Source: a virus (lineage: Duplodnaviria; Heunggongvirae; Uroviricota; Caudoviricetes). From it: a stretch of 64,000 nt of DNA. The stretch is taken from the IMG/VR virus record IMGVR_UViG_3300021440_000016, one strand, 5' to 3'. A model generated the notes under the pieces. The model did not search any database and was not told the DNA's origin. It saw nothing but the letters and a program-made list of their open reading frames with translations. Below, piece after piece: positions 3,235-61,023 of this stretch. Positions within the stretch are counted from its first letter, which is position 1. Each line of letters opens with the position of its first letter. The position numbers were made by a program, and so were the translations under genes.

Positions 3235-3555
3235 ATGAGTAAAACGTATTACAACCTCACCAAGGAGCTTGTTATCTGTATGGCTAAAAAGAAAAAGGCA
3301 GTTTATCCCGGAGTTGACATCTTCAGTACGTCTGCTTACGTTACTCTAGGTAAGGGCCTTGTAGGTACTATGGTCACTGCAGATAACAAGCTCTACCTCA
3401 TGTCTCTCATCAAACCTGTTAGAGTCGGAAGCTCTTGGAAAGATGAAAATCTCGGAGAAGAGACCGTCGTAATTGAATTTGACAATCTGAAGGGTTTGGA
3501 TATACTTATAGAGTCTCTTAAAGAAATTAAGAAGAGCATGGGTAAGAAGAGATGA
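3235..3555 (+). CDS. hypothetical protein
   Basis: MSK start; overlaps the next start (ATGA). Confidence 0.4.
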   Translation: MSKTYYNLTKELVICMAKKKKAVYPGVDIFSTSAYVTLGKGLVGTMVTADNKLYLMSLIKPVRVGSSWKDENLGEETVVIEFDNLKGLDILIESLKEIKKSMGKKR

Positions 3556-3818
3556 CCAAGCCTAATAAAAAGCAAGAAAAAATAAGCCCCACTAAAACTC
3601 TCTTTGAAACCGTCAGTACTGTGATCGCTACAATTGGGTTCACGTGCGGAGGAATGCTCGTAATTACCGCACTAGTCAACGGATATTACGCCCCAGAGCG
3701 CATTTTGAACATTAAGACCGCGATTGAGACTGATATCAAGCGCTTGGACGCTCAACACGAAGAGGACTTCCGATTGCTTAGAGATAAGATAGATTATCTT
3801 GAAAGGAAATGTCCATGA
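3552..3818 (+). CDS. small membrane protein
   Basis: One hydrophobic helix TVSTVIATIGFTCGGMLVITALV. Confidence 0.4.
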   Translation: MTKPNKKQEKISPTKTLFETVSTVIATIGFTCGGMLVITALVNGYYAPERILNIKTAIETDIKRLDAQHEEDFRLLRDKIDYLERKCP

Positions 3819-4024
3819 GTAAGTTCAAAGGAAAAACAGCTCTTCAAGCGGAGATTGCAAGCCTCGTTGGCTTTCTCGGATTTGCCGCCCTGTTCGCCGG
3901 GCTCGTGGTGGCCATTTCAGGCGCAATGGGTACAGCAATGCAGTTGGCTGTGTTGTTTGGCGTGCCCGTATTGGCTCTCGCCTTCGATTTGTGCCACTCC
4001 CCTTGTGGAGGTTCGGATGAGTAA
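3809..4024 (+). CDS. small two-helix membrane protein (GC-rich island)
   Basis: Two hydrophobic segments. Ends CGGSDE, overlapping the GGAGGTTCGGATGAGT junction. Confidence 0.4.
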   Translation: MSMSKFKGKTALQAEIASLVGFLGFAALFAGLVVAISGAMGTAMQLAVLFGVPVLALAFDLCHSPCGGSDE

Positions 4025-4175
4025 GTCCAAAGAGGCCGACGAAGAGCTGGCGTCCGTCCGCGAAGAGGCCCGCCTGCTTGCCGCCCCATACGACGACGCC
4101 TACAAGAAGGGAGTCGTCTCGTTCCATACGATGCAGCTCGCGATGCAGGCCTTGGAGCTCGTTCGTGGTCGCTAA
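4017..4175 (+). CDS. small acidic protein (52 aa)
   Basis: MSK start translationally coupled to the upstream gene; I chose the internal start of track ORF 3855..4175. Confidence 0.35.
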   Translation: MSKSKEADEELASVREEARLLAAPYDDAYKKGVVSFHTMQLAMQALELVRGR

Positions 4176-4301
4176 AGTTCTACAAGCTTTGATCAACTTG
4201 TGTTGTCGTCCTCGATTAATCGTTGATCGAGATGAGGCCTTGCGAGCGAACTGGGATGAGATCATGAAGATGAAGAGGCCGGCCACGGTAGGAAAAAAAG
4301 G

Positions 4302-4448
4302 ATGAGTAAGCGGGACGTGGTGCTTTTGGCGTTTAGTGCATTCGAGTTTGTCGGTTGCGGCGGGGCGCTTGAACGCGGCGAATTGAGTGCCTCAATTGTG
4401 ATGGGCCTTGCTGGTATATCTTTTATGGCTTTGGCGGTGCTGAAATGA
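4302..4448 (+). CDS. small membrane protein (48 aa)
   Basis: GGATGAGTAAG start; the stop overlaps the next ATG (AAATGA). Confidence 0.3.
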   Translation: MSKRDVVLLAFSAFEFVGCGGALERGELSASIVMGLAGISFMALAVLK

Positions 4449-4648
4449 CCAAGCTGACTGAGGCGGCGGAGAAGTTCGTAAGGGAAATGCCGGACGAGAT
4501 TGCGGTTACGGACATTTATAAGGCTGGCTACCGCGCGGCGCTGGAGTCGGTCGCTACAATGATGGAGTCGGAACGCTATCTGGGACACGAGCTGTGGGCG
4601 ATTGAAATGGCAATGCGTATCCGCGCCCTTGGAGGTTCCGATGAGTGA
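4445..4648 (+). CDS. small protein, paralog of 9723..9968
   Basis: Begins MTKLTEAAEKFV and ends IRALGGSDE, exactly as the paralog does. Confidence 0.45.
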   Translation: MTKLTEAAEKFVREMPDEIAVTDIYKAGYRAALESVATMMESERYLGHELWAIEMAMRIRALGGSDE

Positions 4649-4817
4649 CCGTATCGAAGAAATCCGAGAGCGCGTTGAGGTAGCTCGCTTTGTCGAATAC
4701 GTCGTCCCCGGCGGGTTCCAAGAACCAAACCGCATGAAGTGCGTCGCTAGGGTAAGGTCATGTCTTGAGGACGCCAACACCGCCGAAAAGGTGGATGCTT
4801 GCTTAAAATTTGAGTAA
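4641..4817 (+). CDS. small protein
   Basis: Starts at the conserved junction GGAGGTTCCGATGAGT. Confidence 0.35.
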   Translation: MSDRIEEIRERVEVARFVEYVVPGGFQEPNRMKCVARVRSCLEDANTAEKVDACLKFE

Positions 4818-4853
4818 CACTCGGCCCTTTAAATTAAAAGTCAAAGGATTAAT

Positions 4854-5447
4854 ATGGAATTAGCGGCATTTCTTATTCTACTACTGTTATCTTTGTCTTT
4901 TCAATTAGCAGTAGAGAGGTTGATAAGATCAAAGAAGAGCGATATGTTTAAAACAGTACTAGCCGTTGTGGGTTCCATACTTTTTATTTCATTAATTCTT
5001 ACCACTATGTTTACTTTATCCGCAAAAGCGGACGATATAGCTATCCGATATTCTGTAAACGCTATCGGGTCTCCTTCTGATGTCAAGTATGTATCTATAG
5101 GACATACGTTTGATCATTATTTTCTAGAAGGAAAGCTGGAAGCAGGGCTATTGTTAGATCAACGGGTTAAAAAAAGCTCCACTGGAGTAGGCATAGCGAG
5201 CCTAGGTGTGGCACCTAAAGCCGGTAACTTCTTTATGTCCTTCCACCAAGGCATAGCCCTACTAAGTAACCCAGATGATATCTATCTAAGCGGTAATCTG
5301 CAGTTCACCGAGGATTTAGGTGTAGGATTTAGGGGTAGCAACGGCACCGCTATTGTGTTAGGCTATAGGCACATGTCAAATGCAGGGATAGTAAATCCCA
5401 ACCTAGGAAAAGACATGTTTTATTTAGAAACGAGACTTCCTCAATGA
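4854..5447 (+). CDS. PagL-like outer-membrane lipid A deacylase (start possibly at Met31)
   Basis: Signal-like N-terminus; C-terminal RHMSNAGI...YLETR resembles the PagL His-x-Ser...Glu triad. Confidence 0.45.
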   Translation: MELAAFLILLLLSLSFQLAVERLIRSKKSDMFKTVLAVVGSILFISLILTTMFTLSAKADDIAIRYSVNAIGSPSDVKYVSIGHTFDHYFLEGKLEAGLLLDQRVKKSSTGVGIASLGVAPKAGNFFMSFHQGIALLSNPDDIYLSGNLQFTEDLGVGFRGSNGTAIVLGYRHMSNAGIVNPNLGKDMFYLETRLPQ

Positions 5448-5704
5448 CGCCAGAAAAAGTTCAAGGGATTGTTTATTATCTTATTAGCCATCAAGGTAGA
5501 ATTAAAGAAAAGCTGCGTCCTTTTACTGAGCAAAGGAATAAGCTTCTTATAAACAATAGTTTGTTTAGTGAAGAAATTGTAGAGCAATATAAAGACTTGG
5601 TAACTAAGACGATTACAGACGAGCTTACAAAAGACCTAGGCGTTACTACAGAGGAAGCACGGATTGTATTAGAAGATCTTAATATGGAAGAGTATTTAGC
5701 TTGA
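5444..5704 (+). CDS. hypothetical protein
   Basis: ORF coupled to the upstream gene (ATGA overlap). Confidence 0.35.
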   Translation: MTPEKVQGIVYYLISHQGRIKEKLRPFTEQRNKLLINNSLFSEEIVEQYKDLVTKTITDELTKDLGVTTEEARIVLEDLNMEEYLA

Positions 5705-5719
5705 TAATACCGTAGCTCT

Positions 5720-6571
5720 GTGGTAGGTTATACTGTACGGAGGCTGACCAGAGCTATGGGAACGGTAATCTATTTTTCTTTTTTTTGTCTTTTAATTTCA
5801 GTGTACGTTGCAGTGCGCAAGCTTTTAGCTAGTGCTGATACTTTTTTGGGTTATGCTGCTGGCCTAATAGGAGCTGTGTGCCTTATTTATCTGGCGCTAG
5901 TTCTATTTTTTAACTCTTTCGCTAGAGCGGCCGATGATCGTTCCCACATTGCAGTAGTGGATACCGGAGCAAATATCCCAGCTGGATATGCTCGGTATAT
6001 CTGCAACGACAACTCTCATCTAGACCTTACAAATCAAGGTCTTAACGACGTTAACGGGCACGGCACCAACATCGCCGGGATTTTAGCCAAAAGTATGAAT
6101 CCCACTAGACAATGTCTTCAAATAATTAAATGGTATCATAATCAGGAACACTACGAGAAGATGAGGAAACTCTATCTTCTCGAATACCTGTCATCTAGGT
6201 CGCTTAAACACGCACTGAAGTATAAGGCCAAATTTGTAAATCTCAGTTACGGAGGCCCGGAACCCTACCCCGAAGAGTACAGAGAACTCATGAATTTGTT
6301 AAACACGGGGGCAATTGTAGCAATTGCTGCTGGAAATGAAGCAGTAAATCTAGACAATGCTTGTAATTACTATCCAGCGTGCTATGCTATTGCAAAGAAG
6401 AACTTCCATGTTGTAGGTAATAAGGGCTCAGGATCAACTAACTACGGTAACCGTGTTACGGACTGGGCAAACGGTAATAATGTAGAAGGATTTGGAGTGG
6501 TTCTAACCGGAACTAGTCAAGCAACTGCTGTGTGGCTATCCGAGGAGATTAAACGTGCATATCGTAGGTAA
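5720..6571 (+). CDS. membrane-anchored subtilisin-like serine protease (S8)
   Basis: Two N-terminal TM helices. Catalytic motifs VVDTGAN (Asp), NGHGTNIAGI (His) and GTSQATA (Ser) in canonical order. Confidence 0.55.
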   Translation: MVGYTVRRLTRAMGTVIYFSFFCLLISVYVAVRKLLASADTFLGYAAGLIGAVCLIYLALVLFFNSFARAADDRSHIAVVDTGANIPAGYARYICNDNSHLDLTNQGLNDVNGHGTNIAGILAKSMNPTRQCLQIIKWYHNQEHYEKMRKLYLLEYLSSRSLKHALKYKAKFVNLSYGGPEPYPEEYRELMNLLNTGAIVAIAAGNEAVNLDNACNYYPACYAIAKKNFHVVGNKGSGSTNYGNRVTDWANGNNVEGFGVVLTGTSQATAVWLSEEIKRAYRR

Positions 6572-6824
6572 AACGGAAGACAATAAAGAAATTGTAGCTG
6601 GAGTGTTCAAGTTTTACGACACTTACGGCGTGCCTCTATCTTTTCTCTTTGACGCCCTGCAAGAGAATAATAAAGTGATTGATATCGTAGATTTCTATCA
6701 GTTCGCTAGACAAGCCGGGTGGAAGAAACAACGAGTACTGTCACTGCTTTCGGAACACCTAGCCGATAGCTATGGAAAAGATTACAGAAACGCAGTACTG
6801 ATCAAGCTAGAGGCACTAGAATGA
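6555..6824 (+). CDS. hypothetical protein
   Basis: ORF overlapping the 3' end of the subtilase gene. Confidence 0.35.
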   Translation: MHIVGKTEDNKEIVAGVFKFYDTYGVPLSFLFDALQENNKVIDIVDFYQFARQAGWKKQRVLSLLSEHLADSYGKDYRNAVLIKLEALE

Positions 6825-6996
6825 GTATGTATTCGGGGTCAATTATTGATATACTTTCTCCAGTGGACGAGTTAGCCGGTTGCACGTGCGGGGCTTACTC
6901 CGTCAATCCCAAGCTAGAAAAAAGTAGACACGCATACCACTGCGAGTTGCTCAAATCGGAAAAGAAAAAAGACGAAGACTACGATACATATGGGTT

Positions 6997-7284
6997 TTGA
7001 GTATGAAGCTACGTAATTTTTTAAGCTGGGTTTGGGACAATGGAGGCTTTGCCATACTGGGGCTAATTCTAGCGTATGGGACTGTTAAGCTAGTTAAAGC
7101 AGACGGCTACGGAAGATCCCCCTACTACTACAGCTATCAAACAGGCTGCTACAACGCCTACTATAATGAGTGTAGCTTTCATGAAAACGAAAGACAAAAA
7201 GAAGCTTGCTTTAACAGAGGTTTAGACTCGTGCGAAGCGCAGGCAAAGCAGTTTGCGGACTGGATAGTTAATGCAAGTGAATAA
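6997..7284 (+). CDS. small Cys-rich membrane/secreted protein
   Basis: N-terminal hydrophobic helix and six Cys. Confidence 0.35.
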   Translation: MSMKLRNFLSWVWDNGGFAILGLILAYGTVKLVKADGYGRSPYYYSYQTGCYNAYYNECSFHENERQKEACFNRGLDSCEAQAKQFADWIVNASE

Positions 7285-7483
7285 GCGGTATAAGCATAAT
7301 AACGCTCTAGATACAGCTTTTCATACCAGTCATTTAGTAGATGAGACCAATTCTACATTGACATTTGAGGGTGGATGGTTTAACATCAGCTACACACCTC
7401 ACTTCTTCATAGAAGTAGATACTATTACTATTAATAAGTCAGACTTAGACAACTGGAGACAGCTAGATGAACCAATCGAATAA
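7271..7483 (+). CDS. hypothetical protein
   Basis: ORF only. Confidence 0.3.
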   Translation: MQVNKRYKHNNALDTAFHTSHLVDETNSTLTFEGGWFNISYTPHFFIEVDTITINKSDLDNWRQLDEPIE

Positions 7484-9323
7484 GCTACTATCTGATATTG
7501 TAGCTTTCCGTACTTACGCAAAGTTCCTTCCCCACGCAGGTCGTCGAGAGATTTTAGAAGAGTCTATCAATCGAGAAATGATGATGCATCTCGATAAGTT
7601 CCCTAAGTTGTCTAGGGATATTGTCAAGGCATTTCGTAAGGTTCATGATCTAGAAGTCATGCCCTCAATGCGAGGGTTGCAGTTCGCCGGGGATGCAATC
7701 CTCAAGAATAATGCCCGTCAATACAACTGCTCCTTCACTCCTATCGATCACGTAAAAACTTTCTCAGAAGTATTATTTCTCCTACTATCTGGAGTTGGAG
7801 TAGGATTTTCCGTTCAACGCAGACATATTAACAATCTCCCCAAAGTCGGTACTCCTAGGGAAGAGGGTCGATTTATTATCCACGACTCTATTTTAGGATG
7901 GGCACAAGCTGTAGATGCTCTAATGGATGCCTATTTCAATAACTCAATCAAACCAGTATTTGATTACTCAGCAATTCGTCCTAAAGGATCTTACCTTGTC
8001 ACTACTGGTGCGAAAGCTCCCGGTACTGAACCGTTGAAGTATATGTTACAAGCAGTAGAAGCTAGGCTTAAAGAGGCCCAAGGTCGCAAGCTTAGGGCTA
8101 TTGAAGTACACGATATTGTCTGTCTTATTTCAGATTGCGTCCTAGCTGGTGGAATTAGACGAGCTGCCCTTCTATCCCTATTTGATCGCGACGATACTGA
8201 AATGCTTACGGCTAAGTCTGGTGAGTGGTGGGTAAAGCACCCCTACCGTGCAAGGGCAAATAACAGCGCTGTACTCCCACGAGCAGAAGTAACCAAAGAT
8301 GAATTCATGGAAATCTTTCGAACCTGCAAAGACAGCGGCGCGGGGGAACCGGGCTTTAGCTGGACGAATAATCCAGACTGGGGATTTAACCCCTGCCATG
8401 AGATCGCTCTTAACCCCAATCAGTTTTGTAACCTCTCTACTATCAACCAAACTGGCATTCGTAACGAGAAGGACTTCCTAGATCGAGTATACTCAGCTAC
8501 CCTCCTAGGCACCCTACAAGCAGCGTACACGGACTTCCCATTCCTACGGTCTAAGTGGAAAGAAACCACCGAAAGAGAAGCGTTAATCGGTGCGTCAATG
8601 ACCGGCATTGCGGACGCTGCCGGAATCGTTACCCCCGCTATGCTAGAGAAGGGCGCCAAGCTAGCGCTGGAAGTTAATGAGAAGTACGCAAAGAAGATAG
8701 GCATTAACCCTGCCGCTCGTCTTACCGCTATTAAGCCAGAAGGTACTAGTAGTACTGTACTAGGCTCATCTAGCGGCATCCACGCTCGTCATGCAGAGTA
8801 CTACTTACGACGCATTCGTATGAATAAGAATGACGCCCTAGCTACCTACCTTTCTTCAGTAGTACCAGAACTAGTTGAAGATGACGTTACCGCTTCTAAT
8901 GGCATCGTAGTTACTATCCCACAGGAGTCACCGGCTGGAGCTATTATCCGTGACGCTGAAACAGCTATGTCATTGTTCAATCGCTCAATGATGTATAATA
9001 AACACTGGGTTGAACCCGGACATCGTAGCGGGGATAATAAACACAATGTATCCTGTACTATTTCAGTAAAGGATAACGAGTGGGAAGAACTAGCCGAGGC
9101 CATGTGGAACGCTAGGCATGAATACTCAGGGATGTCTCTACTACCCTTCGACGGCGGTAGCTACCGTCAGGCCCCCTTTGAAGCTTGTACAAAAGAGAAA
9201 TATGAAGAACTATCTAAGCTTGTGAAGGAAATCGATCTAAAGCAAGTTAAGGAAGAAGAAGACAATACTAATCGAATGGAAAGTATTGCTTGCTCTGGCG
9301 GACTTTGTGAGTTACCATTATAA
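7467..9323 (+). CDS. ribonucleotide reductase, class II (B12-dependent)-like
   Basis: Active-site-like NPCHEIALNPNQFCNLS (N-x-C-x-E) and C-terminal CSGGLC redox pair. Confidence 0.55.
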   Translation: MNQSNKLLSDIVAFRTYAKFLPHAGRREILEESINREMMMHLDKFPKLSRDIVKAFRKVHDLEVMPSMRGLQFAGDAILKNNARQYNCSFTPIDHVKTFSEVLFLLLSGVGVGFSVQRRHINNLPKVGTPREEGRFIIHDSILGWAQAVDALMDAYFNNSIKPVFDYSAIRPKGSYLVTTGAKAPGTEPLKYMLQAVEARLKEAQGRKLRAIEVHDIVCLISDCVLAGGIRRAALLSLFDRDDTEMLTAKSGEWWVKHPYRARANNSAVLPRAEVTKDEFMEIFRTCKDSGAGEPGFSWTNNPDWGFNPCHEIALNPNQFCNLSTINQTGIRNEKDFLDRVYSATLLGTLQAAYTDFPFLRSKWKETTEREALIGASMTGIADAAGIVTPAMLEKGAKLALEVNEKYAKKIGINPAARLTAIKPEGTSSTVLGSSSGIHARHAEYYLRRIRMNKNDALATYLSSVVPELVEDDVTASNGIVVTIPQESPAGAIIRDAETAMSLFNRSMMYNKHWVEPGHRSGDNKHNVSCTISVKDNEWEELAEAMWNARHEYSGMSLLPFDGGSYRQAPFEACTKEKYEELSKLVKEIDLKQVKEEEDNTNRMESIACSGGLCELPL

Positions 9324-9534
9324 TAATATGAGGAATGCTTTGAGAAATCTAATTCTAATTGTTGGTTTACTGGCTCTCAGTGGATGTGGTAAGCGCGTGT
9401 GTGTCACTGAAACAATTTTCTCCGTTGGTGGTTGTAATAAAGATGGTCGCTGTGGAGTTTTAACCGAGAGTGGGGCTAGAACAGCTCACCTACCAGTTCC
9501 AGGAACAAAATATGAGTTCTGTCATTACGAATAA
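9286..9534 (+). CDS. small lipoprotein
   Basis: Signal LILIVGLLALSGC with lipobox; Cys-rich mature part. Confidence 0.45.
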   Translation: MLALADFVSYHYNNMRNALRNLILIVGLLALSGCGKRVCVTETIFSVGGCNKDGRCGVLTESGARTAHLPVPGTKYEFCHYE

Positions 9535-9722
9535 TCTATGTTCAAAATCATCTTCACCCTCATCGTAGCTACCTCAAACACCCACGTCACCTTAGAAGTG
9601 AAAGGTACTGGTGGACTTCCTGAATGTAATAAGGCAGCGAAGTACATACAGCAGAAGTTTGAGAAATTGGACTATGCAGTTACGTATGAGTGTGTTAAGA
9701 TAGATTGAGATGGAGCATAGCA

Positions 9723-9968
9723 ATGAGTAAGCTGACTGAGGCGGCGGAGAAGTACGTTCTGACCGAAATTGACCCAAGTGATTACGTCAATTCAGCACCG
9801 GATGAGCTGGCTAAGAGACTGTTTGAAGCCGGAGCCCGCTGGATGCTGGAGGAGGCGGCTAATTTAGCGCACGCTCGGTCAAGGAGAAGCATTGCCACAG
9901 AAGGAGCTATTGTTTGCGCGGAGGAGCTTGAAGCGGAAATCCGCGCCCTTGGAGGTTCCGATGAGTAA
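9723..9968 (+). CDS. small protein, paralog of 4445..4648
   Basis: MSKLTEAAEKYV...EIRALGGSDE; the 3' 25 nt are identical to the paralog. Confidence 0.45.
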   Translation: MSKLTEAAEKYVLTEIDPSDYVNSAPDELAKRLFEAGARWMLEEAANLAHARSRRSIATEGAIVCAEELEAEIRALGGSDE

Positions 9969-10221
9969 AGAGGTATTTGATTACATGATTGAACACTCTG
10001 GCGGCAGTTCCATTGATTTCAATGCGATGATTGCAGACATTAATCGAAGGGAAGCTGAACTCGCCAAGCTGCGTGCCCAGAATGAGGTGATGCGGGAGGC
10101 GCTGAAGGATTGGCTTGAATGGTATCCAGTCCACGACGGTAAAAGCTGCAACAACGACTGTCGTGTGTGCCGTGCTAAGAACGCCCTCACCCGCGTGAAG
10201 CAGATGGAGGATGGGAAATGA
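9961..10221 (+). CDS. hypothetical protein with CxxC pair
   Basis: Starts at the conserved junction; C-terminal CNNDCRVC. Confidence 0.4.
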   Translation: MSKEVFDYMIEHSGGSSIDFNAMIADINRREAELAKLRAQNEVMREALKDWLEWYPVHDGKSCNNDCRVCRAKNALTRVKQMEDGK

Positions 10222-10817
10222 GTAAGTGCAATTGCCTCGGCGTCGGTGTCCAAATCGACAACCTCGCCCCAAACACATCGAACATCCAACTGTGTACTTG
10301 TATCAAATCCGAAATGGCAGACCTCCGCGCCGAATTGCAGCGGGTAGAGCTGAAGCTGAAAGAAGTGGGGTCCAATAGGGATTACTTCAAGGGTGAGTTT
10401 CACTTTTATCATGCCGCTTGCTCCAATCAGGACAAAGAGATTGACCGCCTCCGAGAAGTGAACGAGAAGCTGAAGAGCAGTCTCTCTGAGAGACAAGGCC
10501 GCGTGCATGAGTTGAACGAAAAGTGCGACCGCCTCCAAGCCCGCTGCAATTCTCTGGAGCTATCCGCATCGGAGTGGAAGCAAGACGCCGACCGCCTCCG
10601 TGAGCAGCTTAGGTGCGTGATTCAAGCCGTGCAGGACCACGCGGAGTCCGGATGCATTGAGAACTCCCACGCGCTGTCTGAGAAGATTGAGGAAATCGAT
10701 CAACTCTGCGGGGACGGAGAGAATCCGTCGGTCCATATATGCCACGAAGCGCCGGAGCCAGAGACTCGCATTGAGCGCATGGCGGTGTGTCCGTTTTGCG
10801 GCGAGAAACTGAAGTAA
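10218..10817 (+). CDS. coiled-coil protein with C-terminal zinc ribbon
   Basis: Long heptad-like region ELKLKEVG...LREQL; CxxC...CPFCGEKLK. Confidence 0.45.
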   Translation: MSKCNCLGVGVQIDNLAPNTSNIQLCTCIKSEMADLRAELQRVELKLKEVGSNRDYFKGEFHFYHAACSNQDKEIDRLREVNEKLKSSLSERQGRVHELNEKCDRLQARCNSLELSASEWKQDADRLREQLRCVIQAVQDHAESGCIENSHALSEKIEEIDQLCGDGENPSVHICHEAPEPETRIERMAVCPFCGEKLK

Positions 10818-11151
10818 CGCCCACGGGCGGGGATGGGGCCTAGGCCGCACGCTTCCAGCTAACGCGCTTACGGTTCTTGTAGATAAAGGCAGGTGCTTAG
10901 ACTTTTGCTGGAGTTGGGTAAATGGGTGCTAAACAAAGCTAGAAATAGCCTCTACGGAAATAAACCCAGCCTGCTTTCCTTTATATTCTAGTAGTGTGGG
11001 GCATAGGCGGTAAAGACCGCCAGTTAATAAGGTTGTCTCGTCGGCGTGGAAGGACACGCCACGTGCTCGCTGTATTTCGAGGCGGGGTGCATCGCGCGGG
11101 TCATCGGATGAATTAGCCCAAGCCGGTATCAAGCCCGGCACGAGACAAAGG

Positions 11152-11226
11152 GCGGCGGGTGCTCAGTAGGAGTCTGAGTATAACAAGGGTTTTCGACCCG
11201 GTCCGCCGCTTTTTCTCTTTCTCTCC
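11152..11226 (+). terminator. extended hairpin followed by T/C-rich run
   Basis: GCGGCGG at 11152-11158 pairs with CCGCCGC at 11203-11209. Nested GCTCAG/CTGAGT stem. TTTTTCTCTTTCTCTCC follows. Confidence 0.35.
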
Positions 11227-11252
11227 TTTGTAATACGTGTTAAGCTGTACGT

Positions 11253-11705
11253 ATGAGACTTTGGACATTACACCCCTCTCTTCTCGACTCTAAAGGCCTT
11301 GTTGCTTTATGGCGAGAAGGGTTAGGCGCACAGGCTGCTCTTCATGAATTAACAAATGGCTATAGCAAGCACCCTCAGCTAAACCGCTGGCGAGGATATC
11401 TTGGCTCATTTTCTGTGTATATGAAATATGTGTATCGTGACTCTGCAGCTAGAGGGTACAATTTCCAGCAGTCTAAGCTTATTGACACTAAAGGGATGGG
11501 AGCCATTCCACTAATTGTGACAATAGGGCAGGTAAAATATGAACTGAAGCACTTGCTGACCAAATTGGAGCACAGAGATCCTAAACAATTTCATCTAATT
11601 ATAGAAATTCTGGCCAACTCTAAAGGCTCATATGATCTTCTAGTAAATCCCATTTTTGTAATTGACTATAACTGGGATAAAGTAGAGTCATGGGAAAAGG
11701 TATGA
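11253..11705 (+). CDS. denV: pyrimidine dimer DNA glycosylase (T4 endonuclease V / DenV family)
   Basis: N-terminus MRLWTLHPSLLDSKGLVALWRE aligns with T4 endoV [23 protein letters not shown], including the catalytic R-E. Confidence 0.65.
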   Translation: MRLWTLHPSLLDSKGLVALWREGLGAQAALHELTNGYSKHPQLNRWRGYLGSFSVYMKYVYRDSAARGYNFQQSKLIDTKGMGAIPLIVTIGQVKYELKHLLTKLEHRDPKQFHLIIEILANSKGSYDLLVNPIFVIDYNWDKVESWEKV

Positions 11706-13202: not shown

Positions 13203-14312
13203 ATGAGTAAGTCACTTAAGCTAAGTCACTCAGCTACTAGAATGTATTCTCAATGTAGCCGTAAGTATCAGCTACATTATCAAAAGCGGTTTCGCTCAAA
13301 GCTCACATCAGGCGCCCTGCTATTCGGTAGCTCCATGGACCATGCCCTTAATGATCTCTTAGAGCATCGTAATCTAGACCAAGCGCTAAAGCTATTTGAC
13401 AAGAGCTTTCGCTTTAACTTCATTAACAAAGTAGGTACTTATCTCCCTGAAACTACTCTTGTAACCTACGCTAAATCAGATTTTGACACAGACTTACTGA
13501 CTGAAGAGGACATTAAAAAATTTAATGAAAAACAATATGAATGGAATGTTTACCTTTCTAAGTCGATTGGAGAAGTCGTTTCTGTTCTACAGGCTAAGAA
13601 AGCTGAATCGGGCTTTAATTCTCTTTCTGAAGAAGAGAAAAAGGCCCTGAACCTTGCAAACTGGCTATGCCTTAACCGCAAAGGCCAGATCATGATCAAA
13701 AGCTACTACGAAAAGGCTCTACCTAAGATCAAAAACGTACTAGCTATTCAAAAACAAGTAGAAGTGGGCAATCAAGAAGGCGACAAGCTCATTGGTTATA
13801 TCGATCTTATTGTAGAAACTCAGGACGGCAAGCGATACGTGATGGATAATAAGACTTCTTCTATTGAGTATGAAGCTAATTCCGCACAACGAAGTCAGCA
13901 GCTTATTCTGTACTATCACATTACTAAACAAGAGTATAAGCTAGACGGCGCCGGTTTTATTGTGATGATGAAGCACATACTTAAGAACAAGGTTAAAACC
14001 TGCTCCAAGTGCCAGTACGATGGATCTGGTGGAAGACATAAGACCTGCGCCAATGAGATTGACGGTAAACGTTGCGGAGGGGAATGGATTGAAGTCATTA
14101 ACCCTGAAGCTCGTATTGAGTGGATTACTAATGAGGTGCCAGAAGCGGCAGAAAATCTAGTAATGGAAACTTTCGATGAAGCTAACTGGGGCATTAAGAA
14201 TAACATCTTTGGTCCAAACCTCGGAGCCTGCTTCAATGGCCCTATTGTGTGTGAGTTTGCTAAATACTGCTGGGAAGGTTCCAAGGAAGATCTAGTAGAG
14301 TTGCATGATTAA
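13203..14312 (+). CDS. PD-(D/E)XK nuclease with Fe-S cluster (Cas4/RecB-like phage exonuclease)
   Basis: GYIDLIVETQDGKRYVMDNKTSS is a D...ExK motif. One N-terminal Cys plus C-terminal CSKC...C...C cysteines. Confidence 0.6.
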   Translation: MSKSLKLSHSATRMYSQCSRKYQLHYQKRFRSKLTSGALLFGSSMDHALNDLLEHRNLDQALKLFDKSFRFNFINKVGTYLPETTLVTYAKSDFDTDLLTEEDIKKFNEKQYEWNVYLSKSIGEVVSVLQAKKAESGFNSLSEEEKKALNLANWLCLNRKGQIMIKSYYEKALPKIKNVLAIQKQVEVGNQEGDKLIGYIDLIVETQDGKRYVMDNKTSSIEYEANSAQRSQQLILYYHITKQEYKLDGAGFIVMMKHILKNKVKTCSKCQYDGSGGRHKTCANEIDGKRCGGEWIEVINPEARIEWITNEVPEAAENLVMETFDEANWGIKNNIFGPNLGACFNGPIVCEFAKYCWEGSKEDLVELHD

Positions 14313-15996: not shown

Positions 15997-16587
15997 ATGA
16001 AAACTAGCGAATCAATCAAACAGTTAGCCGCAGCTATAAATCGGGCTCAGAAGAAGATCGGGGCAGCGGTTAAAGGCAATAGCAATCCTTTCTTCAAGAG
16101 CAAGTACGCCGACCTTGGAGCGGTAATGGAGGCTTGTAAAGAACACCTTAACGCAGAAGGTATCACTGTTCTTCAACCCGTACACTCGGATGAAACTGGA
16201 GATTATGTAGAAACTGTGCTCCTTCATGACTCTGGTGAATTCATGTCATCTCGCATGCGAATGCTTCCGAGTAAGAACATGCAGGAACTGGGTAGTGCAA
16301 CTAGCTACGCTCGTCGCTACGGGCTACAGAGCATGGTATTCATTCCAGCAGAAGATGATGATGGAAATCACAGCACCTTCGGTAAAGCTGCTCCTGAAAA
16401 GACGGCTCCTAAGCCCGCAGCTAAGCAGGAAGTCAAAGCAGAGCCCGCTACGGCTGCATTGGCAGCCTTCGCAGCTGCTACCCCGGCATCTCCTTCTGCT
16501 CAAGAAGCACCTAAGCGCTCTAGCTTCAGGAAGCCAGCAGCTCCGGCGGCAGCTCAACCGGTAACGTCAGACGATGGCTGGGAATAA
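15997..16587 (+). CDS. ERF-family single-strand annealing protein
   Basis: NPFFKSKYADLGAV is the ERF core; Ala/Pro-rich linker; acidic C-terminal SDDGWE tail. Confidence 0.6.
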   Translation: MKTSESIKQLAAAINRAQKKIGAAVKGNSNPFFKSKYADLGAVMEACKEHLNAEGITVLQPVHSDETGDYVETVLLHDSGEFMSSRMRMLPSKNMQELGSATSYARRYGLQSMVFIPAEDDDGNHSTFGKAAPEKTAPKPAAKQEVKAEPATAALAAFAAATPASPSAQEAPKRSSFRKPAAPAAAQPVTSDDGWE

Positions 16588-50100: not shown

Positions 50101-51763
50101 CCTTTGGAGTAGTGCCGGCGTCGTAGTCGCTGATCATGTTAGTAACACCAAGAAGATTGATCAACTTTTTGTGTTTTGTTCTGGTGTTTGCATAAAAAGC
50201 CACATTTTTAAAGACGTTTATATCTTTAGCAAAAGGTGGAATGTCGTTAGATTGGAGTATCCCTTGACCGGACTGAGCGTTAGTGTAGAGATTAGCTCCC
50301 CGGAAAGTATCCGGAGTATTGTCTATGACAACCATTTCGAGAGCAGCAAGCTCCGCAGCCGTGGGGTAGGCCTCATATACTTGCTGCATTTCGTCACCGG
50401 GAGCAACGTCCGTAGAAAGAACCGAGGTGCCAGTGGCAGGAGCTACCGCTGTACGGTAAAGTTGTAGAAAGTAATTGCTATTGACATCTTCTGGGATAGT
50501 GAGAACTAGCTTTACAGAGGAAGAAGTAGTTACGTCTAGAACTGAAATGTACTGAGTCTGCTCAGGAGTAGGAATAATATTTGAATTTTCAGCTTGTAAT
50601 TCAGAAATAATGGAGCTAAGATATGATTGAAGAGCCACTAACTGAGCATTAGTTGCTGGAGTTGAGGGCACTCCGGGCTGGGTGATCGATTTATAACTAT
50701 CGTCATTGATCGAGGCCCCAGTAACGGTAGCTGCTCCACCCGCCGTAGTAGTGAAGGTGATAGTAGTTGAGGTTACAGAGCTTACCGTTTGAACACCGTT
50801 AAGTGAGCCGGTAGCAGAACTAAAGCCTGCCAAAGAGATTTTTTGGCCAGAAACAAAGTAATTACTAGCAGCTCCAGCAGAAAAAGTAACCGTGCAAAGT
50901 CCGGCAGAAATAGAGGCCGACCCAATAGTTAGAGGTGCTCCAGTGCCCGTATCATTGGCAAGAAGTAGATCAGTATCTATCTTTGCTGCAAGAGCCAAAA
51001 GATTTGTACGAAGTTCTACAGCAGAAGCACTTAAAGGGAGTTTAAGCGTAGAAACATAATTGCCGTCGCTGATTAAAGAACCAGAACCAGCTAAGGAGTC
51101 TAGCGCACCAAGAACGGCAATAAAATCCTGCACAAGTAAGGTTTGTAGGGAATTAAAAACTTCAGTTCTCTGGCTAGGAGTTCCTAGGATAAGATTATTA
51201 TTTTTATCCTTGGTAGCCCATACTGCGCGATAAGCCACAGCTGAGTCTTCATCCATAAAACCAGTTTGGTTACCTGCTAGGTACTGCGGAGTGGCCGTAA
51301 AGTCAATAGCTTTAATACCTCCGGCTTGCGTAACAAAACCTGCTGTCGTGGTGAAGTCAGAGGCACTCGTTGCAGAAATCTTTTTAATGCCTTCAGAGGT
51401 AGTGAAGTAGAAGTTACCATTAGCCTCTATGCTTTTAATACGTAGACCTGTTTGAGTTTCTGAAAAAGAGTCTGCGAAGTTCTTAAAGATGGCTAGATTA
51501 GCCTCTGTCGTTTCTCCGCTGTCGTAGGCTAGGGTATTTCCATAGTGAGCAAGAATACGCTGTTTATACACAGCGAGTTGCTTCGCTCTGTCGCCAGAGG
51601 AACCAATTCCAGAGTCATAAACCTTGTATCCACGACGAGATTCCACAATATCGTCACGACGAATGACAACATCGCTAGCTTCAGTCATGCTGCCAGCAGG
51701 AACCTCAATTGGATTTGGGCTAAAGTTAAGACCTAGAGCTTTTAGAGTTGGTCCAGTAGGCAT
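47111..51763 (-). CDS. large virion structural protein (1550 aa; tail/injection component candidate)
   Basis: Long Thr/Ser/Gly-rich beta-type sequence. No polymerase or ATPase motifs. Lies between the fibre genes and the ejection-like proteins. Confidence 0.4.
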   Translation of the reverse strand: MPTGPTLKALGLNFSPNPIEVPAGSMTEASDVVIRRDDIVESRRGYKVYDSGIGSSGDRAKQLAVYKQRILAHYGNTLAYDSGETTEANLAIFKNFADSFSETQTGLRIKSIEANGNFYFTTSEGIKKISATSASDFTTTAGFVTQAGGIKAIDFTATPQYLAGNQTGFMDEDSAVAYRAVWATKDKNNNLILGTPSQRTEVFNSLQTLLVQDFIAVLGALDSLAGSGSLISDGNYVSTLKLPLSASAVELRTNLLALAAKIDTDLLLANDTGTGAPLTIGSASISAGLCTVTFSAGAASNYFVSGQKISLAGFSSATGSLNGVQTVSSVTSTTITFTTTAGGAATVTGASINDDSYKSITQPGVPSTPATNAQLVALQSYLSSIISELQAENSNIIPTPEQTQYISVLDVTTSSSVKLVLTIPEDVNSNYFLQLYRTAVAPATGTSVLSTDVAPGDEMQQVYEAYPTAAELAALEMVVIDNTPDTFRGANLYTNAQSGQGILQSNDIPPFAKDINVFKNVAFYANTRTKHKKLINLLGVTNMISDYDAGTTPKVTITNADGSFNTYSFVKGVAQVTDITTIGDVSDSLDGKYFYINSANNDTEYYVWFKTSAGVDPAVAGKTGIEVQLTTNDGASIVATKLADKLSQYPQDFLVDVSGNVVTVENMSVGYTIATTDVDTAFTFATTSAGVGERVTQQTSTVDFVADVGGSLAGTYFTLSNAFDQTQYYVWYRVSGVGSDPALTNKTGIRVDILTNATATSVATATGTAVGALDDFSVELDTSSIIITNVGFGPAINTGAGTTGFSVATSQLGALDVLLSDAVSSAQAVDETSRSFIRIINKNRTEGVYAYYLSGASDVPGKMYIEARQLNTPAFYIVGNNSNTGLSFNPDLSPTLTISSISTGNPSTMLVTTSTPHGLRNLDKVIITATNSEASIDGYHQITYVNSTQFRVVEYITVSGNTGALIPVNSAVVTENDDKPNRVFYSKLQEPEAVPSVNYFDVGAKDKAILRIFPLRDTLFVLKEDGLYRISGEVAPFTLSLFDSSCILVAPDSVSVANNNIYAWTTQGISTITESGVQTISRPIDTEILKVSSSGYTGFKTSTWGIGYDSDNSYTVYTVKNPADNFATIAYRYSNLTNTWTTFNQSKTCGVVNLSDDKVYLGASDINNIEQERKTFTREDYADREFAATLEANNYFQTRLKLLDVSNISVGDVITQEQTVTLYSFNSLLKKLDLDPGNADHDYEATLKAVSGDSMRTKLVSLATKLDNDANVVASDFASSIGTKSGAITGVSAADPCVITSVNHGLISGRVIQISSSDTSPSIDGAKTVTVIDADTFSVPVSVISVGTTGTWVTVDNNFEDMRTCYNEIISKLNADAGPAFSNYTPITNTTLIEAIVVDVNYTTRYVTLNLELPFIVGALKSYEAIVSRFTYAPDHFGDPVSFKHFRELTIMFLSKAFTSAKVRVASDLLPQLLEIPFNGDGNGIFGYTGFGEGFFGGASHAVPFRTYVPRPCQRARYLVIQFEHAVAREQYGVTGVSITGESYSIRAYR

Positions 51764-52992
51764 TAGAACCTCCTGCGAGTACCGAGGCGACCCCAGCGTA
51801 GTAAAGAGTATTTAGCAGTGATCTTACGAGGTGAACCATCAACTCGGTTATCGAGTAAGGTCCCTTCACTTTTATTGATTTCTTCGATCTTGGCGCTCGA
51901 CATCTGTAGACCAGCAACATCGCCCATGGCGGCTAAAATACGCGCAGCAGCCCTTTCGGCCAACCCGTTGTGTAGTTCGGGCGGAAGCTGAGGGATAATG
52001 CATTCATTAGCAGTACAAACATAATCGCCGACAACTAGATCTTCTGGCACCTCGCTTGCCCGGAAAGAAATAGAGCTACTAGACACGCCGTTAATCGGAA
52101 TAAGCACATCGTAAGTACGAATTTTATGTCCGGGTTTGGTCTGCAAGAAGTCAACATAACTAGACGAGGTAATATTCGAAGGAATACTATTGAATACAAT
52201 CCCTTGAGTAGCTTGAATAGTTAGAGCGGCCGTATTGGAAGAAGTCAAAGTAGTGTCTAGTTCTTGATAGGATACCGTTACGACAGACGTAGAGGGGGAG
52301 CCGTTGTTAGCGGACACTTCTCCGACCGTATTAATGGCTTGAGCTAGGCTGGTAGCCGTGGCAATATCCGATGCGCCAATCTGAAATTGGAGAACAGAAG
52401 GGGAACCGGACACTGCAGTAAAGACGGAGCTACCGACAGTGACGGTATCTCCAGCAACTAGACTAGCGTTATTGACAGTAATGGTCTTTGAGAAGCCAGA
52501 AATAATGGCTGCTCTTTCGTCCTTTACGAGTTGATTCGGACGTAGAAAGAAACAGAAAACAAGGTACCCTGTAGCATCGCCCGAAACGGAAGGGGAAAGC
52601 ACTACATCGTTGTTTTCAATGTAGTATTTATGTACAGCTTGATTAGCCCCAATGCTTCGTTGAAAGAAAGCCTTATCCTCTTCAGTAATTTGAGACATAC
52701 CGAAAAGGTTACCGGAAGAGTCCTGCCAGAACAAATCACGAAGCTTCATCCCGATCGCACGATCAGGAATAGCGTATCGAGACTTATTTGAACGCAGAGG
52801 AACAGTCTTAGTATAAACTAAATACTCTTCGTGATACTGCATTACCGCAGGGATCTGCGAAATAGCCACTTCTTCGTTGACAAAGCGAAGAATGTCGTCT
52901 TCTGTCATCAACGTTTGCGCTATTGGCATCGAAATCTTACGTTTAATAGATTCGATGATGCCGGAACTAGTGAGCCAAGGAGTAGCTGCCAT
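51763..52992 (-). CDS. virion structural protein (409 aa)
   Basis: ORF coupled (ATGA) to the 1550-aa gene. Confidence 0.35.
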   Translation of the reverse strand: MAATPWLTSSGIIESIKRKISMPIAQTLMTEDDILRFVNEEVAISQIPAVMQYHEEYLVYTKTVPLRSNKSRYAIPDRAIGMKLRDLFWQDSSGNLFGMSQITEEDKAFFQRSIGANQAVHKYYIENNDVVLSPSVSGDATGYLVFCFFLRPNQLVKDERAAIISGFSKTITVNNASLVAGDTVTVGSSVFTAVSGSPSVLQFQIGASDIATATSLAQAINTVGEVSANNGSPSTSVVTVSYQELDTTLTSSNTAALTIQATQGIVFNSIPSNITSSSYVDFLQTKPGHKIRTYDVLIPINGVSSSSISFRASEVPEDLVVGDYVCTANECIIPQLPPELHNGLAERAAARILAAMGDVAGLQMSSAKIEEINKSEGTLLDNRVDGSPRKITAKYSLLRWGRLGTRRRF

Positions 52993-56277: not shown

Positions 56278-56511
56278 TTACATCCTCGATTTCTTGATTT
56301 TCATCATCTGCTGAATTCTGGGAAGCTTTGGCATAGCTGGAAGTTCCGGAGCAGAATCAGGACTTTGAGGTTCTGGTAGTTTTGGTAACTTGAGATTAGG
56401 AGCGGCCGTCATACCCTGTTTAGCGGCTGCCGCCTTACCTGCAAAAAAAGCTCTACGACTGTTAGCTGATTTAAATGCCATAAAGTATTCCTTAGTTCCC
56501 GATACGATCAA
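56278..56511 (-). CDS. hypothetical small basic protein
   Basis: ORF only. Confidence 0.3.
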   Translation of the reverse strand: MIVSGTKEYFMAFKSANSRRAFFAGKAAAAKQGMTAAPNLKLPKLPEPQSPDSAPELPAMPKLPRIQQMMKIKKSRM

Positions 56512-59775: not shown

Positions 59776-61023
59776 TTAGGCGCTATTGACAACGCTGGTG
59801 ATAATGACGTTACGAGCTGGCGCGGCGCAGAATACAGCCTGATCGCTGTATAGGCGGAGTTCGTAAGCGGCAGAGTTCTCTAGATCGCGGAAGAACTCTT
59901 CGCCCTGACCGGGGCGCTTGAAGGTCATGTCGGTTGAACCAACACGGAACCAACCTTCGATATCGAGGAGGTAGCAATAACCTTCCTTGACATAGATTGA
60001 AGGCTCGATTTCAATTTCGCCGTTCTGTGAGTGGAAAAGGATACCCTTTGAACCCACTTCGGTCTTATCCTTGCTGTAGCTGTCGTCATAACGACGGAGA
60101 GCAGCTTGGTCGTTGAGCATGTTCGCCCAGCCACGAGGATTGACTAGAGCGAGGAGCTTGCCGTCGAGACCCTTTTCAACCGCGCGAGCAGCAGCCTGAT
60201 TGATCTTGCTGAAGCTTAGCGCAGCGGAACCAGCAGAGTACTGGTTACCACGGAAGAGGTTGTACGTGCCAACGTTGATGTTGAAGAGCGTGCCGGAAGA
60301 AATCGTGAGAATCTTGTGGATTCCGGGGAATTCGTTGCCGTAAGCGCCCTTGTGCCAAATAACGTCACCAGCGCTGAGTGAGAGCGTGGAAACGTTGAGG
60401 GTGATGGTGCGAGCATCCATGTCAACAGACTGAACCGTGGCTTCGCCGCGTGACGTAGCGCCGGTTGAGTCGCGGACTTCGATTGGCATGCCTTCAGCGC
60501 CGGCCCAAATGCCGGGCGCCCACTCAGCCGTGGTGATGGTGATGACCGCGCCGCTCTGTGAAGCGACCGTGCCATAGCCCATCTGGCCGTAAAGCATTTC
60601 AATCTCAAGCTTCTTCGCCATAGAGCGAAGCATGTTGGCTACTAGGAACTTAGTAGCGTCCATGAACGCCTTAGAGCCGCCCTGAGCAGCGCGTGAAGCA
60701 GCGACATAGCCGAGGAGTGAGCGGAGGACAACGGGGTTACCCTTGACCTGAGCGTCCTTGATCTGACCGGCGACTGGAGCATTAAGATTGAAGGCATCTT
60801 CGTCGCTTGACGCGAAGGTGACGCCGTGTTCTAGACCGAGGATTACAGGCTGGTGATAGAGGTTACCGGGCTGCTTGTCCTTGGACATGAACTTGATCTT
60901 GTTTAGAAGCTTAACGCCATCAGGGATTAGCTCAGCGAGCTTGTCCGCGTAGGCTTCTTTGAAAAGGCCGTTGAGCGTGCCAACGGTACCTGCTGGATTA
61001 CCAAAAGTATTAGTAGTAGCCAT
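59776..61023 (-). CDS. major capsid protein (putative)
   Basis: 415 aa downstream of scaffold-like and small decoration-like genes. Elevated GC. Own terminator. Strong AAGGAG RBS. Confidence 0.5.
   Translation of the reverse strand: MATTNTFGNPAGTVGTLNGLFKEAYADKLAELIPDGVKLLNKIKFMSKDKQPGNLYHQPVILGLEHGVTFASSDEDAFNLNAPVAGQIKDAQVKGNPVVLRSLLGYVAASRAAQGGSKAFMDATKFLVANMLRSMAKKLEIEMLYGQMGYGTVASQSGAVITITTAEWAPGIWAGAEGMPIEVRDSTGATSRGEATVQSVDMDARTITLNVSTLSLSAGDVIWHKGAYGNEFPGIHKILTISSGTLFNINVGTYNLFRGNQYSAGSAALSFSKINQAAARAVEKGLDGKLLALVNPRGWANMLNDQAALRRYDDSYSKDKTEVGSKGILFHSQNGEIEIEPSIYVKEGYCYLLDIEGWFRVGSTDMTFKRPGQGEEFFRDLENSAAYELRLYSDQAVFCAAPARNVIITSVVNSA

Follow-up and report, generated by a model that had tools for sequence, protein, structure and literature searches.

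Compositionally foreign islands of overlapping small genes in the early region of a novel ~85-kb phage

The 64,000-nt stretch of Caudoviricetes DNA analyzed here (IMG/VR record IMGVR_UViG_3300021440_000016; hereafter the window) carries, on its + strand, two GC-rich islands of small genes, at positions 3815..4817 (island 1) and 9723..11218 (island 2). Each island holds one copy of a duplicated gene, paralog A (4445..4648) and paralog B (9723..9968), and in both islands genes are joined by stop-start junctions, in which the start codon of one gene overlaps the stop codon of the gene before it. An initial annotation, made from the letters of this DNA and their open reading frames (ORFs), took the islands for horizontally acquired modules exchanged by recombination at a conserved boundary sequence. 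We integrated composition and codon statistics with searches for relatives and donors and with a dissection of the junction and of the two paralogs. The islands are compositionally foreign, the junction is a recurrent translational idiom, and the DNA match between A and B is confined to their ends, a pattern most simply read as short-tract recombination.

Results

Gene content of the islands

Island 1 consists of five small ORFs, starting at 3815, 4017, 4302, 4445 and 4641, with one 126-nt gap (GC 0.51–0.60; GC at third codon positions, GC3, 0.56–0.79). Its first gene, g3815 (3815..4024), encodes a hydrophobic, membrane-like protein of 69 aa that ends in CGGSDE; the start codon overlaps the stop of the native gene 3552..3818 (ATGA), and a family search with the protein returned no match. 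The following gene, g4017 (4017..4175), is a 52-aa ORF that opens with MSK and has the highest GC3 (0.79). Then come the gap in the chain of overlapping genes (4176..4301; GC 0.48, fold not significant) and g4302 (4302..4448), a 48-aa hydrophobic ORF that also starts with MSK and runs into A through an ATGA overlap; g4302 is uncertain because it was not called in the source annotation. Beyond A (67 aa) lies g4641 (4641..4817), a 58-aa ORF with an MSD start. The initial annotation had described everything from 3809 to 4817 as one tightly coupled chain, and this holds for the overlaps but not for the 126-nt gap at 4176–4301 or for 4302..4448, the ORF that the source did not call. The sigma-70-like site nearest to island 1, at 3479–3506, falls inside gene 3235..3555.

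Island 2 consists of B (81 aa), two further genes, a GC-rich non-coding tail and a terminator-like hairpin. The 86-aa ORF g9961 (9961..10221) starts with MSK and has a C-terminal Cys cluster; it is joined by an ATGA overlap to g10218 (10218..10817), which encodes a coiled-coil protein of 199 aa that has a Cys cluster at each end (CNC..C.C and a C-terminal CPFC) and three internal DRL(R/Q) repeats at 10432–10602, which lie 63–84 nt apart with GACCGCCTCC as their core. The tail (10818..11146, ~330 nt; GC of the whole non-coding stretch 10818–11252, 0.54) contained no convincing ORF, no Rfam or Pfam match and no significant fold, and could represent donor sequence in decay or a 3′ untranslated region. 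As a structured RNA, 10818–11252 was rejected (fold z −1.1 and −0.6), the terminal hairpin alone being significant; Rfam (at gathering cut-offs and at E ≤ 1) and ARAGORN returned nothing relevant. The right end of the island is formed by a branched, terminator-like hairpin with a U-rich tract (11147..11218; ΔG −33.6 kcal/mol, z = −3.8, none of 200 shuffles as stable), the hairpin occupying 11147–11214 and the U tract following it, just ahead of the native Pyr_excise gene at 11253. Across both islands, six of the eight genes have an MSK start, compared with about 5 in 100 elsewhere (p = 6e-6).

Composition and codon usage

In sliding windows of 300 nt, GC reaches 0.51–0.60 at 3750–4800 and 0.49–0.59 at 9750–11400, against a mean of 0.438 (standard deviation 0.055) for the window and 0.35–0.45 in the island flanks, which bears out the initial description of segments GC-richer than their surroundings. 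The top 1-kb island windows (GC 0.551 from 3801 and 0.547 from 10201) lie about 2.6 standard deviations above the mean. The steps in GC coincide with gene borders, namely the 3552/3815 junction, the stop at 4817, the start of B at 9723 and the position before the Pyr_excise gene at 11253.

Codon usage agrees with GC. GC3 of the eight island genes is 0.54–0.79 versus 0.41 ± 0.09, and island genes take eight of the ten highest places among 109 ORFs (Mann–Whitney p = 2e-6). The correlation of relative synonymous codon usage is 0.61 between island 1 and island 2, −0.13 between the islands and the rest of the phage, and 0.27 between the islands and the major head gene. The island preference is for G-ending codons (CTG, GAG, GTG and GCG), and CTG accounts for 35% of Leu codons in the islands, the figure being 5% for the remainder of the phage and 0% for the head gene. 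In a leave-one-out codon log-likelihood ratio (LLR) test, seven of the eight island genes scored above all 101 other ORFs, and the score was positive for four of the five genes of island 1. The islands are compositionally foreign, and their horizontal origin is well supported by composition.

The major head gene itself (59776–61023, − strand; PHROG 14242) has a GC3 of 0.63 with C-ending codons: CTC makes up 21 of its 36 Leu codons and CTG none, and AAG makes up 22 of its 23 Lys codons. This bias is probably translational selection; the dialect differs from that of the islands and may hint at the codons preferred by the host.

Relatives and candidate donors

Anchoring on the RNR gene between the islands, we assembled 64 relatives (23 IMG/VR loci and 41 metagenome loci; RNR identity 29–72%, GC 0.28–0.49). 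None of the 64 carries any island gene. These loci share almost no small genes with the window, apart from occasional SPFH, nuclease or ERF genes. The interval from RNR to the PD-(D/E)XK nuclease gene measures 0.8 kb in four of them (L111–L114) versus 3.9 kb here; the RNR identity of the relatives concerned is 49–72%, and their intervals hold other ORFans. The interval is a variable region between conserved core genes. In some relatives (L129 at 4251–6512, L133, L134, L023, L024, L142 and L144), RNR was matched by tblastn as two or three pieces 0.4–1 kb apart, which suggests inteins, introns or homing-endonuclease inserts; the RNR gene of the window is uninterrupted.

Searches for a source were negative. 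Neither the region nor island 2 gave a match by BLAST, set for near and for distant matches, to any of 50,697 phage or 72,556 plasmid records, and tblastn of the eight concatenated island proteins against the phage records gave none either; a 719-aa structural ORF likewise had none there. The window phage has no counterpart in INPHARED at the DNA or the protein level.

The stop-start junction

GGAGGTTCSGATGAGT occurs three times in the window, where 0.06 copies are expected. All three copies have the same layout: a Shine–Dalgarno (SD) sequence GGAGG, 5 nt, ATG, AGT and TAA or TGA, with the upstream protein ending in GGSDE and the downstream one starting with MS. The first copy, GGAGGTTCGGATGAGTAAG (4007..4025), joins g3815 to g4017 and contains the SD, a spacer of 5 nt, the g4017 ATG and the TAA that ends g3815, the two genes overlapping by 8 nt. 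The initial annotation had found this copy and placed it at 4008–4024; its existence stands and its coordinates are corrected. The other two copies fall in the conserved 3′ block of the paralogs, at 4619..4648 (SD GGAGG at 4631, ATG of g4641 at 4641, TGA stop of A at 4646–4648) and 9939..9968 (SD at 9951, ATG of g9961 at 9961, TAA stop of B at 9966–9968). With the corrected downstream start codons at 4017, 4641 and 9961, all three are 8-nt ATGAGTRA overlaps with GGAGG 5 nt upstream, and the shorter ATGA overlap is found at 3815, 4445 and 10218. The arrangement is that of overlapping genes, the downstream start lying over the upstream stop and the SD within the upstream coding sequence. Given these stop-start overlaps, a ribosome finishing one gene could re-initiate on the next (putative translational coupling). 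The genes downstream of A and B, g4641 and g9961, show no similarity to each other, as the initial annotation had stated.

The junction is not peculiar to this phage. A scan of IMG/VR for the 18-mer GGAGGTTCSGATGAGTRA gave 75 matches, all in frame as GGSDE, stop, MS; 60 of these are the Baseplate_J/Tail_P2_I (J/I) junction of P2-like phages (confirmed with Pfam) and 15 lie in 14 unrelated contexts. A control scan for the synonymous TCW variant gave 51 matches, again in frame, comprising 22 J/I junctions and 29 matches in 23 other contexts (GC 0.31–0.68). Together, the 18-mer and its variant are found at about 37 unrelated junctions in phages of GC 0.31–0.72. In a few matches the upstream ORF is only 5–12 aa long, that is, an SD and an ATG with no real upstream gene. 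At the P2-like J/I junction (VGGSDE, stop, MS[KDN]RLLP; loci L027–L101 and L148–L198), the 18-mer was seen in 82 contigs, with its nucleotides conserved and the flanking codons varying.

The same SD-spacer core, GGAGGTTCNNATG, is also native to the window: GGAGGTTCTAATG at 51761..51773 (− strand) is a junction of structural genes in DNA of normal composition, where a 409-aa ORF ending in AGGS precedes an ORF of 1550 aa. Four further 8-nt overlaps occur elsewhere in the window. An extended 21-mer of the junction matched one unrelated metagenome-assembled genome among 185,579 genomes. No alternative cargo at the junction was seen in any relative, variant or donor candidate, and look-ups of the native flanking proteins for variants with other cargo returned the same context only. 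The 18-mer is a recurrent translational idiom, in which a strong SD encoded as Gly-Gly is combined with a fixed spacer and a stop-start overlap, and the junction between g3815 and g4017 is therefore not by itself evidence of recombination. All three copies are preceded by a CCCTTG motif if a 2-nt indel is allowed.

Gene starts in this region are stereotyped past the start codon as well. ATGAGTAAGTYCAAAG is common to two adjacent unrelated genes (3815–3830 and 4017–4032), and GARATGACCAAGC is common to the native gene 3552 and paralog A (3549–3561 and 4442–4454).

Mosaic structure of paralogs A and B

Comparison of the two proteins confirmed the paralogy that had been proposed (41% identity, E = 4e-12), and an all-against-all comparison of island proteins showed A and B to be the sole paralogous pair. 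Their DNA match is confined to the ends. The 5′ conserved block of A (4444..4479) is 92% identical to its 36-nt counterpart in B (9722..9757) and includes a 25-nt exact run at 4451–4475. At the 3′ end, 28 nt are 100% identical (4619–4646 and 9939–9966); the initial annotation had noted this identity and gave it 25 nt. In shuffled sequences, no end matches of this kind are expected.

Where A and B have the same residue in the codon alignment, the codon is also the same at 18 of 19 such positions in the termini, compared with 7 of 16 for the interior (Fisher p = 0.0017). At the nucleotide level the interior is 48% identical, with synonymous sites near saturation. The 28-nt identical run has p = 2.5e-5 when alignment columns are shuffled and 1.6e-3 when whole codons are shuffled, and two runs of at least 25 nt arose in none of 200,000 permutations. 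With the termini removed, the interior of B shows 52–69% identity to members of the family from other phages (E 1e-10 to 1e-15) and 38% identity to A over 29 aa (E = 0.003); A is then roughly equidistant from B and from the outside members. The pair thus has the pattern of gene conversion or mosaicism, with near-identical tracts in diverged sequence and a B interior that is nearer to outside homologs (P0004–P0012) than to A. Short-tract recombination, as ends-only gene conversion or as exchange between diverged alleles, would be the simplest reading of these ends and is supported by the codon and run statistics.

The minimal efficient pairing segment has been placed at 23–27 bp for Red-beta and 31–34 bp for RecA, and recombination of diverged DNA by an Erf/exo pair has been shown to match that by Red in efficiency (PMC3945230). 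The exact A/B tracts of 25 and 28 nt reach the Red-beta minimum. Pairing between the 5′ and 3′ blocks that would mask the downstream ribosome-binding site (RBS) was considered and rejected (expected inter-block pairs 0.23 and 0.01); RNA folding revealed no common local structure in the A and B blocks, the local folds differing between the two genes.

A rare protein family

B represents the canonical form in a rare family of phage proteins that are small and helical, whereas A is a divergent copy that lacks the 10-aa segment YVLTEIDPSD; in B this segment has TACGT direct repeats at its flanks. Among 1.8–5.8 billion proteins, HMMER run exhaustively and then a profile search turned up about eight remote relatives (P0004–P0012), with the shared N-terminal motif YVLxE(I/L)(D/N)PSDYVxxAPDxLAxxxFxAG. 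A word-indexed protein search with A and B returned self-matches only, locus searches of IMG/VR based on them found no relatives, and no profile in Pfam, PHROG, NCBIfam or PADLOC matched either protein. The contexts fetched for the remote homologs of B are arrays of small overlapping genes on phage-like contigs of 47–57% GC; none of the remote relatives has the GGSDE ending or the junction. An AlphaFold model of B (predicted local distance difference test score, pLDDT, 76) is mostly one long helix, and Foldseek with this model found nothing at E < 0.5 in BFVD or the Protein Data Bank (PDB). The gene setting suggests that A and B are early accessory proteins.

Genome setting

The window is part of a ~85.5-kb metagenomic phage contig (ENA ERZ27252002 k141_716791), on which its proteins are encoded exactly. 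A 30-kb Logan contig from SRR7614061, derived from a different sample with a different assembler, matches the window over a 14,055-nt stretch, both islands included, with 100% identity, and the same proteins are present on four contigs, all four identical. The two islands are not an assembly artefact, since the independent SRR7614061 contig is identical across both.

Early and replication genes lie in the + strand half of the window (SPFH, PagL-like, subtilase, class II-like RNR, Pyr_excise, PD-(D/E)XK nuclease, ThyX, ERF, DnaB and PolA), and the − strand half carries the structural genes, the major head protein among them. Between the islands lie PagL-like, subtilase-like and lipoprotein-like genes and RNR, in agreement with the initial view that the islands flank an outer-membrane moron cluster and the RNR gene. 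Two genes downstream bear on recombination: a PD-(D/E)XK nuclease (13203..14312, + strand), a candidate exonuclease partner of a phage recombinase, and an ERF-family single-strand annealing protein (15997..16587, + strand), a candidate catalyst for short-homology exchange. Among the remaining ORFs, 9286–9534 has a lipoprotein-type signal and a weak LptM-like match (E = 9e-4), and 6555–6824 weakly matches a fragment of alanyl-tRNA synthetase (PF01411; E = 3e-4), both under the curated cut-off. About 4 kb upstream of the start of the window (L002 1743–2919) are a short ORF with a Phage_integrase domain (186 aa) and a response-regulator receiver ORF; the window phage may be temperate or recombinase-carrying.

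An 11-mer, TAAGATAGATT, occurs exactly twice in the 64-kb window, both times on the native side of an island border on the + strand: at 3785..3795, 19 nt ahead of where ATGAGTAAG first occurs in island 1, and at 9696..9706, 16 nt ahead of its first occurrence in island 2. Both copies sit in the 3′ ends of native upstream genes (..DKIDYLERKCP and ..CVKID, each followed by the stop). The motif could be a shared left border or an insertion target; it is short and was picked out post hoc, and as a border mark it is weak.

Discussion

Origin of the islands and of the A/B mosaic

On balance, we lean toward a joint reading of these observations as imported moron-like cassettes with stop-start translational coupling and ends-only recombination of the paralogs. 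Two GC-rich blocks would have been imported from one GC-richer phage gene pool into a variable early region of this novel ~85-kb phage, an event that we infer from their foreign composition and from their absence in the relatives. The small island genes would be chained either by ATGA or by the 8-nt ATGAGTRA with GGAGG ahead of it, through which coupling in vivo would operate. A and B may have diverged long ago or come in as separate alleles, and the first ~30 and last ~28 nt would have been homogenized later by short-tract recombination (ends-only gene conversion), plausibly by the phage's own ERF annealing protein and PD-(D/E)XK nuclease. The third copy of the junction would then be a general-purpose SD-start-stop idiom and not a dedicated recombination site. 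This is an ordinary route of phage genome evolution, and a new kind of system is not required.

Several observations weigh against this reading. The region of the major head gene (59.8–61.0 kb, GC 0.554) and a second one at 56.5–57.6 kb (0.55) match the islands in GC, so that GC by itself does not mark the islands out, and the codon dialect of g4641 is borderline in the leave-one-out LLR test. No donor turned up in phages, in plasmids or in 185,579 genomes; a single genotype of the window phage is on record; and the ancestral state of the intervals cannot be reconstructed, because the closest relatives reach at most 72% RNR identity. A consensus scan for sigma-70-type sites found no sigma-70-like promoter on the + strand immediately ahead of 3815 or 9723, and island 1 lacks a terminator, 4815–4856 being unstructured. 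Three copies of the junction within 6 kb are unusual, as none of 126 IMG/VR stretches holds more than one, and the third copy may share descent with the other two instead of having converged on them. Finally, some nucleotide constraint on the ends of A and B is expected without recombination, because initiation depends in part on the ~10 opening codons and the next RBS is encoded in the ~6 closing ones.

Of the competing explanations, one is the model of the initial annotation, a coding-region analogue of the promoter-early stem-loop (PeSL) cassettes of T4, in which GGAGGTTCSGATGAGTRA (28 nt in A and B) would be a conserved boundary and homologous recombination at it would swap whole modules between phages. 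The crowding of three copies into 6 kb, matched by none of the other motif-bearing stretches, and the unrelated genes downstream are what this model would lead one to expect. A/B homology, moreover, runs from 1 nt before the ATG to codon 2 of the next gene, so that the repeat unit is exactly one gene; ATGAGTAAG holds stop codons in both alternative frames, and a cassette opening with it thus terminates the upstream ORF in two of three frames; both overlap modes, ATGA and ATGAGTRA, occur here; the phage encodes ERF and a nuclease; and the PeSLs provide a precedent (PMC2839356). Yet the third copy shares only 18 of 19 nt, under the 23–27 bp pairing minimum, the 18-mer is found at about 37 unrelated junctions with its core at a native one here, no other cargo is seen at the junction in any relative or variant, and the contexts of B's homologs lack it altogether. 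We consider such module exchange unlikely and do not uphold the junction as its dedicated boundary. The claim of recombination survives for the A/B termini, where synonymous codon identity and the 28-nt run speak for it. The claim of horizontal acquisition is supported by codon dialect, GC3 and absence from the 64 relatives. That A and B are old paralogs whose termini were frozen by nucleotide-level purifying selection, acting at the 5′ end on efficiency of initiation and at the 3′ end on the SD, start and overlap of the gene downstream, with no recombination at all, appears to us quite unlikely. Such selection, acting on the initiation region and on the RBS that follows, is surely part of the picture: the final 15 nt hold SD, spacer and start codon, the 18-mer is conserved at many P2-like J/I junctions, and gene starts in this phage are stereotyped (ATGAGTAAGTYCAAAG and GARATGACCAAGC each occur twice). 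Such a constraint does not readily account for 12 codons, outside the SD-start core, that are identical at every synonymous site. The copies match for 12 nt upstream of the SD (ATCCGCGCCCTT) and, at the 5′ end, across eight full codons with every synonymous site included, in genes whose interior is near saturation; the blocks are neither linked nor covered by a conserved RNA structure; and other family members lack these termini.

Two further alternatives concern the islands themselves. If they were native genes, their high GC would reflect expression-linked codon adaptation or amino-acid composition, as might be argued from the equally GC-rich major head gene and ORF 56492–59122 and from the negative donor searches. 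The head gene, however, follows a different dialect (C-ending, with CTC in 21 of 36 Leu codons, no CTG and GAA over GAG, versus CTG, GAG, GTG and GCG in the islands) and its codon LLR is negative; the non-coding tail of island 2, at GC 0.54, is not explicable by codon adaptation; and no relative carries the island genes. A native origin is accordingly highly improbable. A chimeric assembly, in which mis-joined reads from a GC-richer organism made the repeats or the islands, would be conceivable given a metagenomic source, yet its chance is negligible in view of the assembly from another sample that is identical across both islands, the four contigs with the same proteins, and the in-frame stop-start overlaps that join island genes to native genes.

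Comparison with known systems

The imported cassettes that we favor resemble morons in the HK97/HK022 sense (PMC3594210) in possibly being extra DNA between genes that are closer together in relatives, in their deviant GC relative to the flanks (with GC3 and codon dialect concurring), in the terminator that island 2 has of its own, and in host-surface-modifying cargo nearby (the PagL-like gene). They differ in that neither island has a dedicated promoter upstream, as far as sigma-70-type sites are concerned, and island 1 has no terminator; each is also a chain of several ORFans, whereas a moron is a single cargo gene. Because overlapping stop-start codons weld their genes to the neighbors, the islands, unlike morons, are not independent transcription units.

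The hyperplastic regions of T4-type phages (PMC2839356, PMC4122927) likewise hold clusters of small ORFans between conserved core genes, and as in those regions the short border repeats here could be a recombination substrate while supplying expression signals. PeSLs are ~100-bp intergenic motifs, made up of an early promoter and a stem-loop, that flank ORFans (PMC2839356), and exchange and mini-circles at them have been demonstrated between near-identical phages (PMC2839356, PMC4122927). The island repeats are not of this type: they are 18–36 nt long, lie inside coding sequence and supply translational signals, with no promoter or stem-loop.

With the phages that encode Rad52-like recombinases (PMC3945230), the window phage shares an ERF-family protein and an exonuclease (here encoded 2–6 kb downstream), exact tracts that, at 25 and 28 nt, fit the pairing minimum of Red-beta, and mosaic genes. 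The exchange described there is between phage and prophage over longer diverged homologies, whereas here it would be an ends-only conversion between paralogs of one genome. The junction itself follows the known design of overlapping stop-start coupling (ATGA; ATGNNNTRA; the J/I junction of P2), namely GGAGG, 5 nt, ATG, AGT and TRA between GGSDE and MS; nothing sets it apart in principle, three copies within 6 kb of one genome being the unusual feature.

Implications

A bolder proposal, which we regard as decidedly improbable, is that ATGAGTAAG and the preceding GGAGGTTCSG form a portable, frame-tolerant coupling adaptor that also serves as a short-homology joint for the shuffling of cassettes by ERF and exonuclease. 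If true, small ORFan cassettes would be insertable behind any gene and expressed at once by termination-reinitiation, and the adaptor would be a translational, coding-sequence counterpart of the T4 PeSLs. For scans that use sequence only, the junction is a caution: an identical 18-nt boundary between unrelated genes can be a convergent translational idiom (GGSDE, stop, MS). The family of A and B, recognizable by its PSDYV-APD-LA-F-AG motif, is uncharacterized and very rare, and is of note to cataloguers of phage early-gene families. Should the imported-cassette reading be right, the two islands would be a clean, small example of a phage acquiring and domesticating foreign ORFans, in which cassettes that retain the codon dialect of their source are wired into phage expression through overlapping stop-start codons and duplicated members are partly homogenized by short tracts, of lengths that fit phage annealing proteins rather than RecA.

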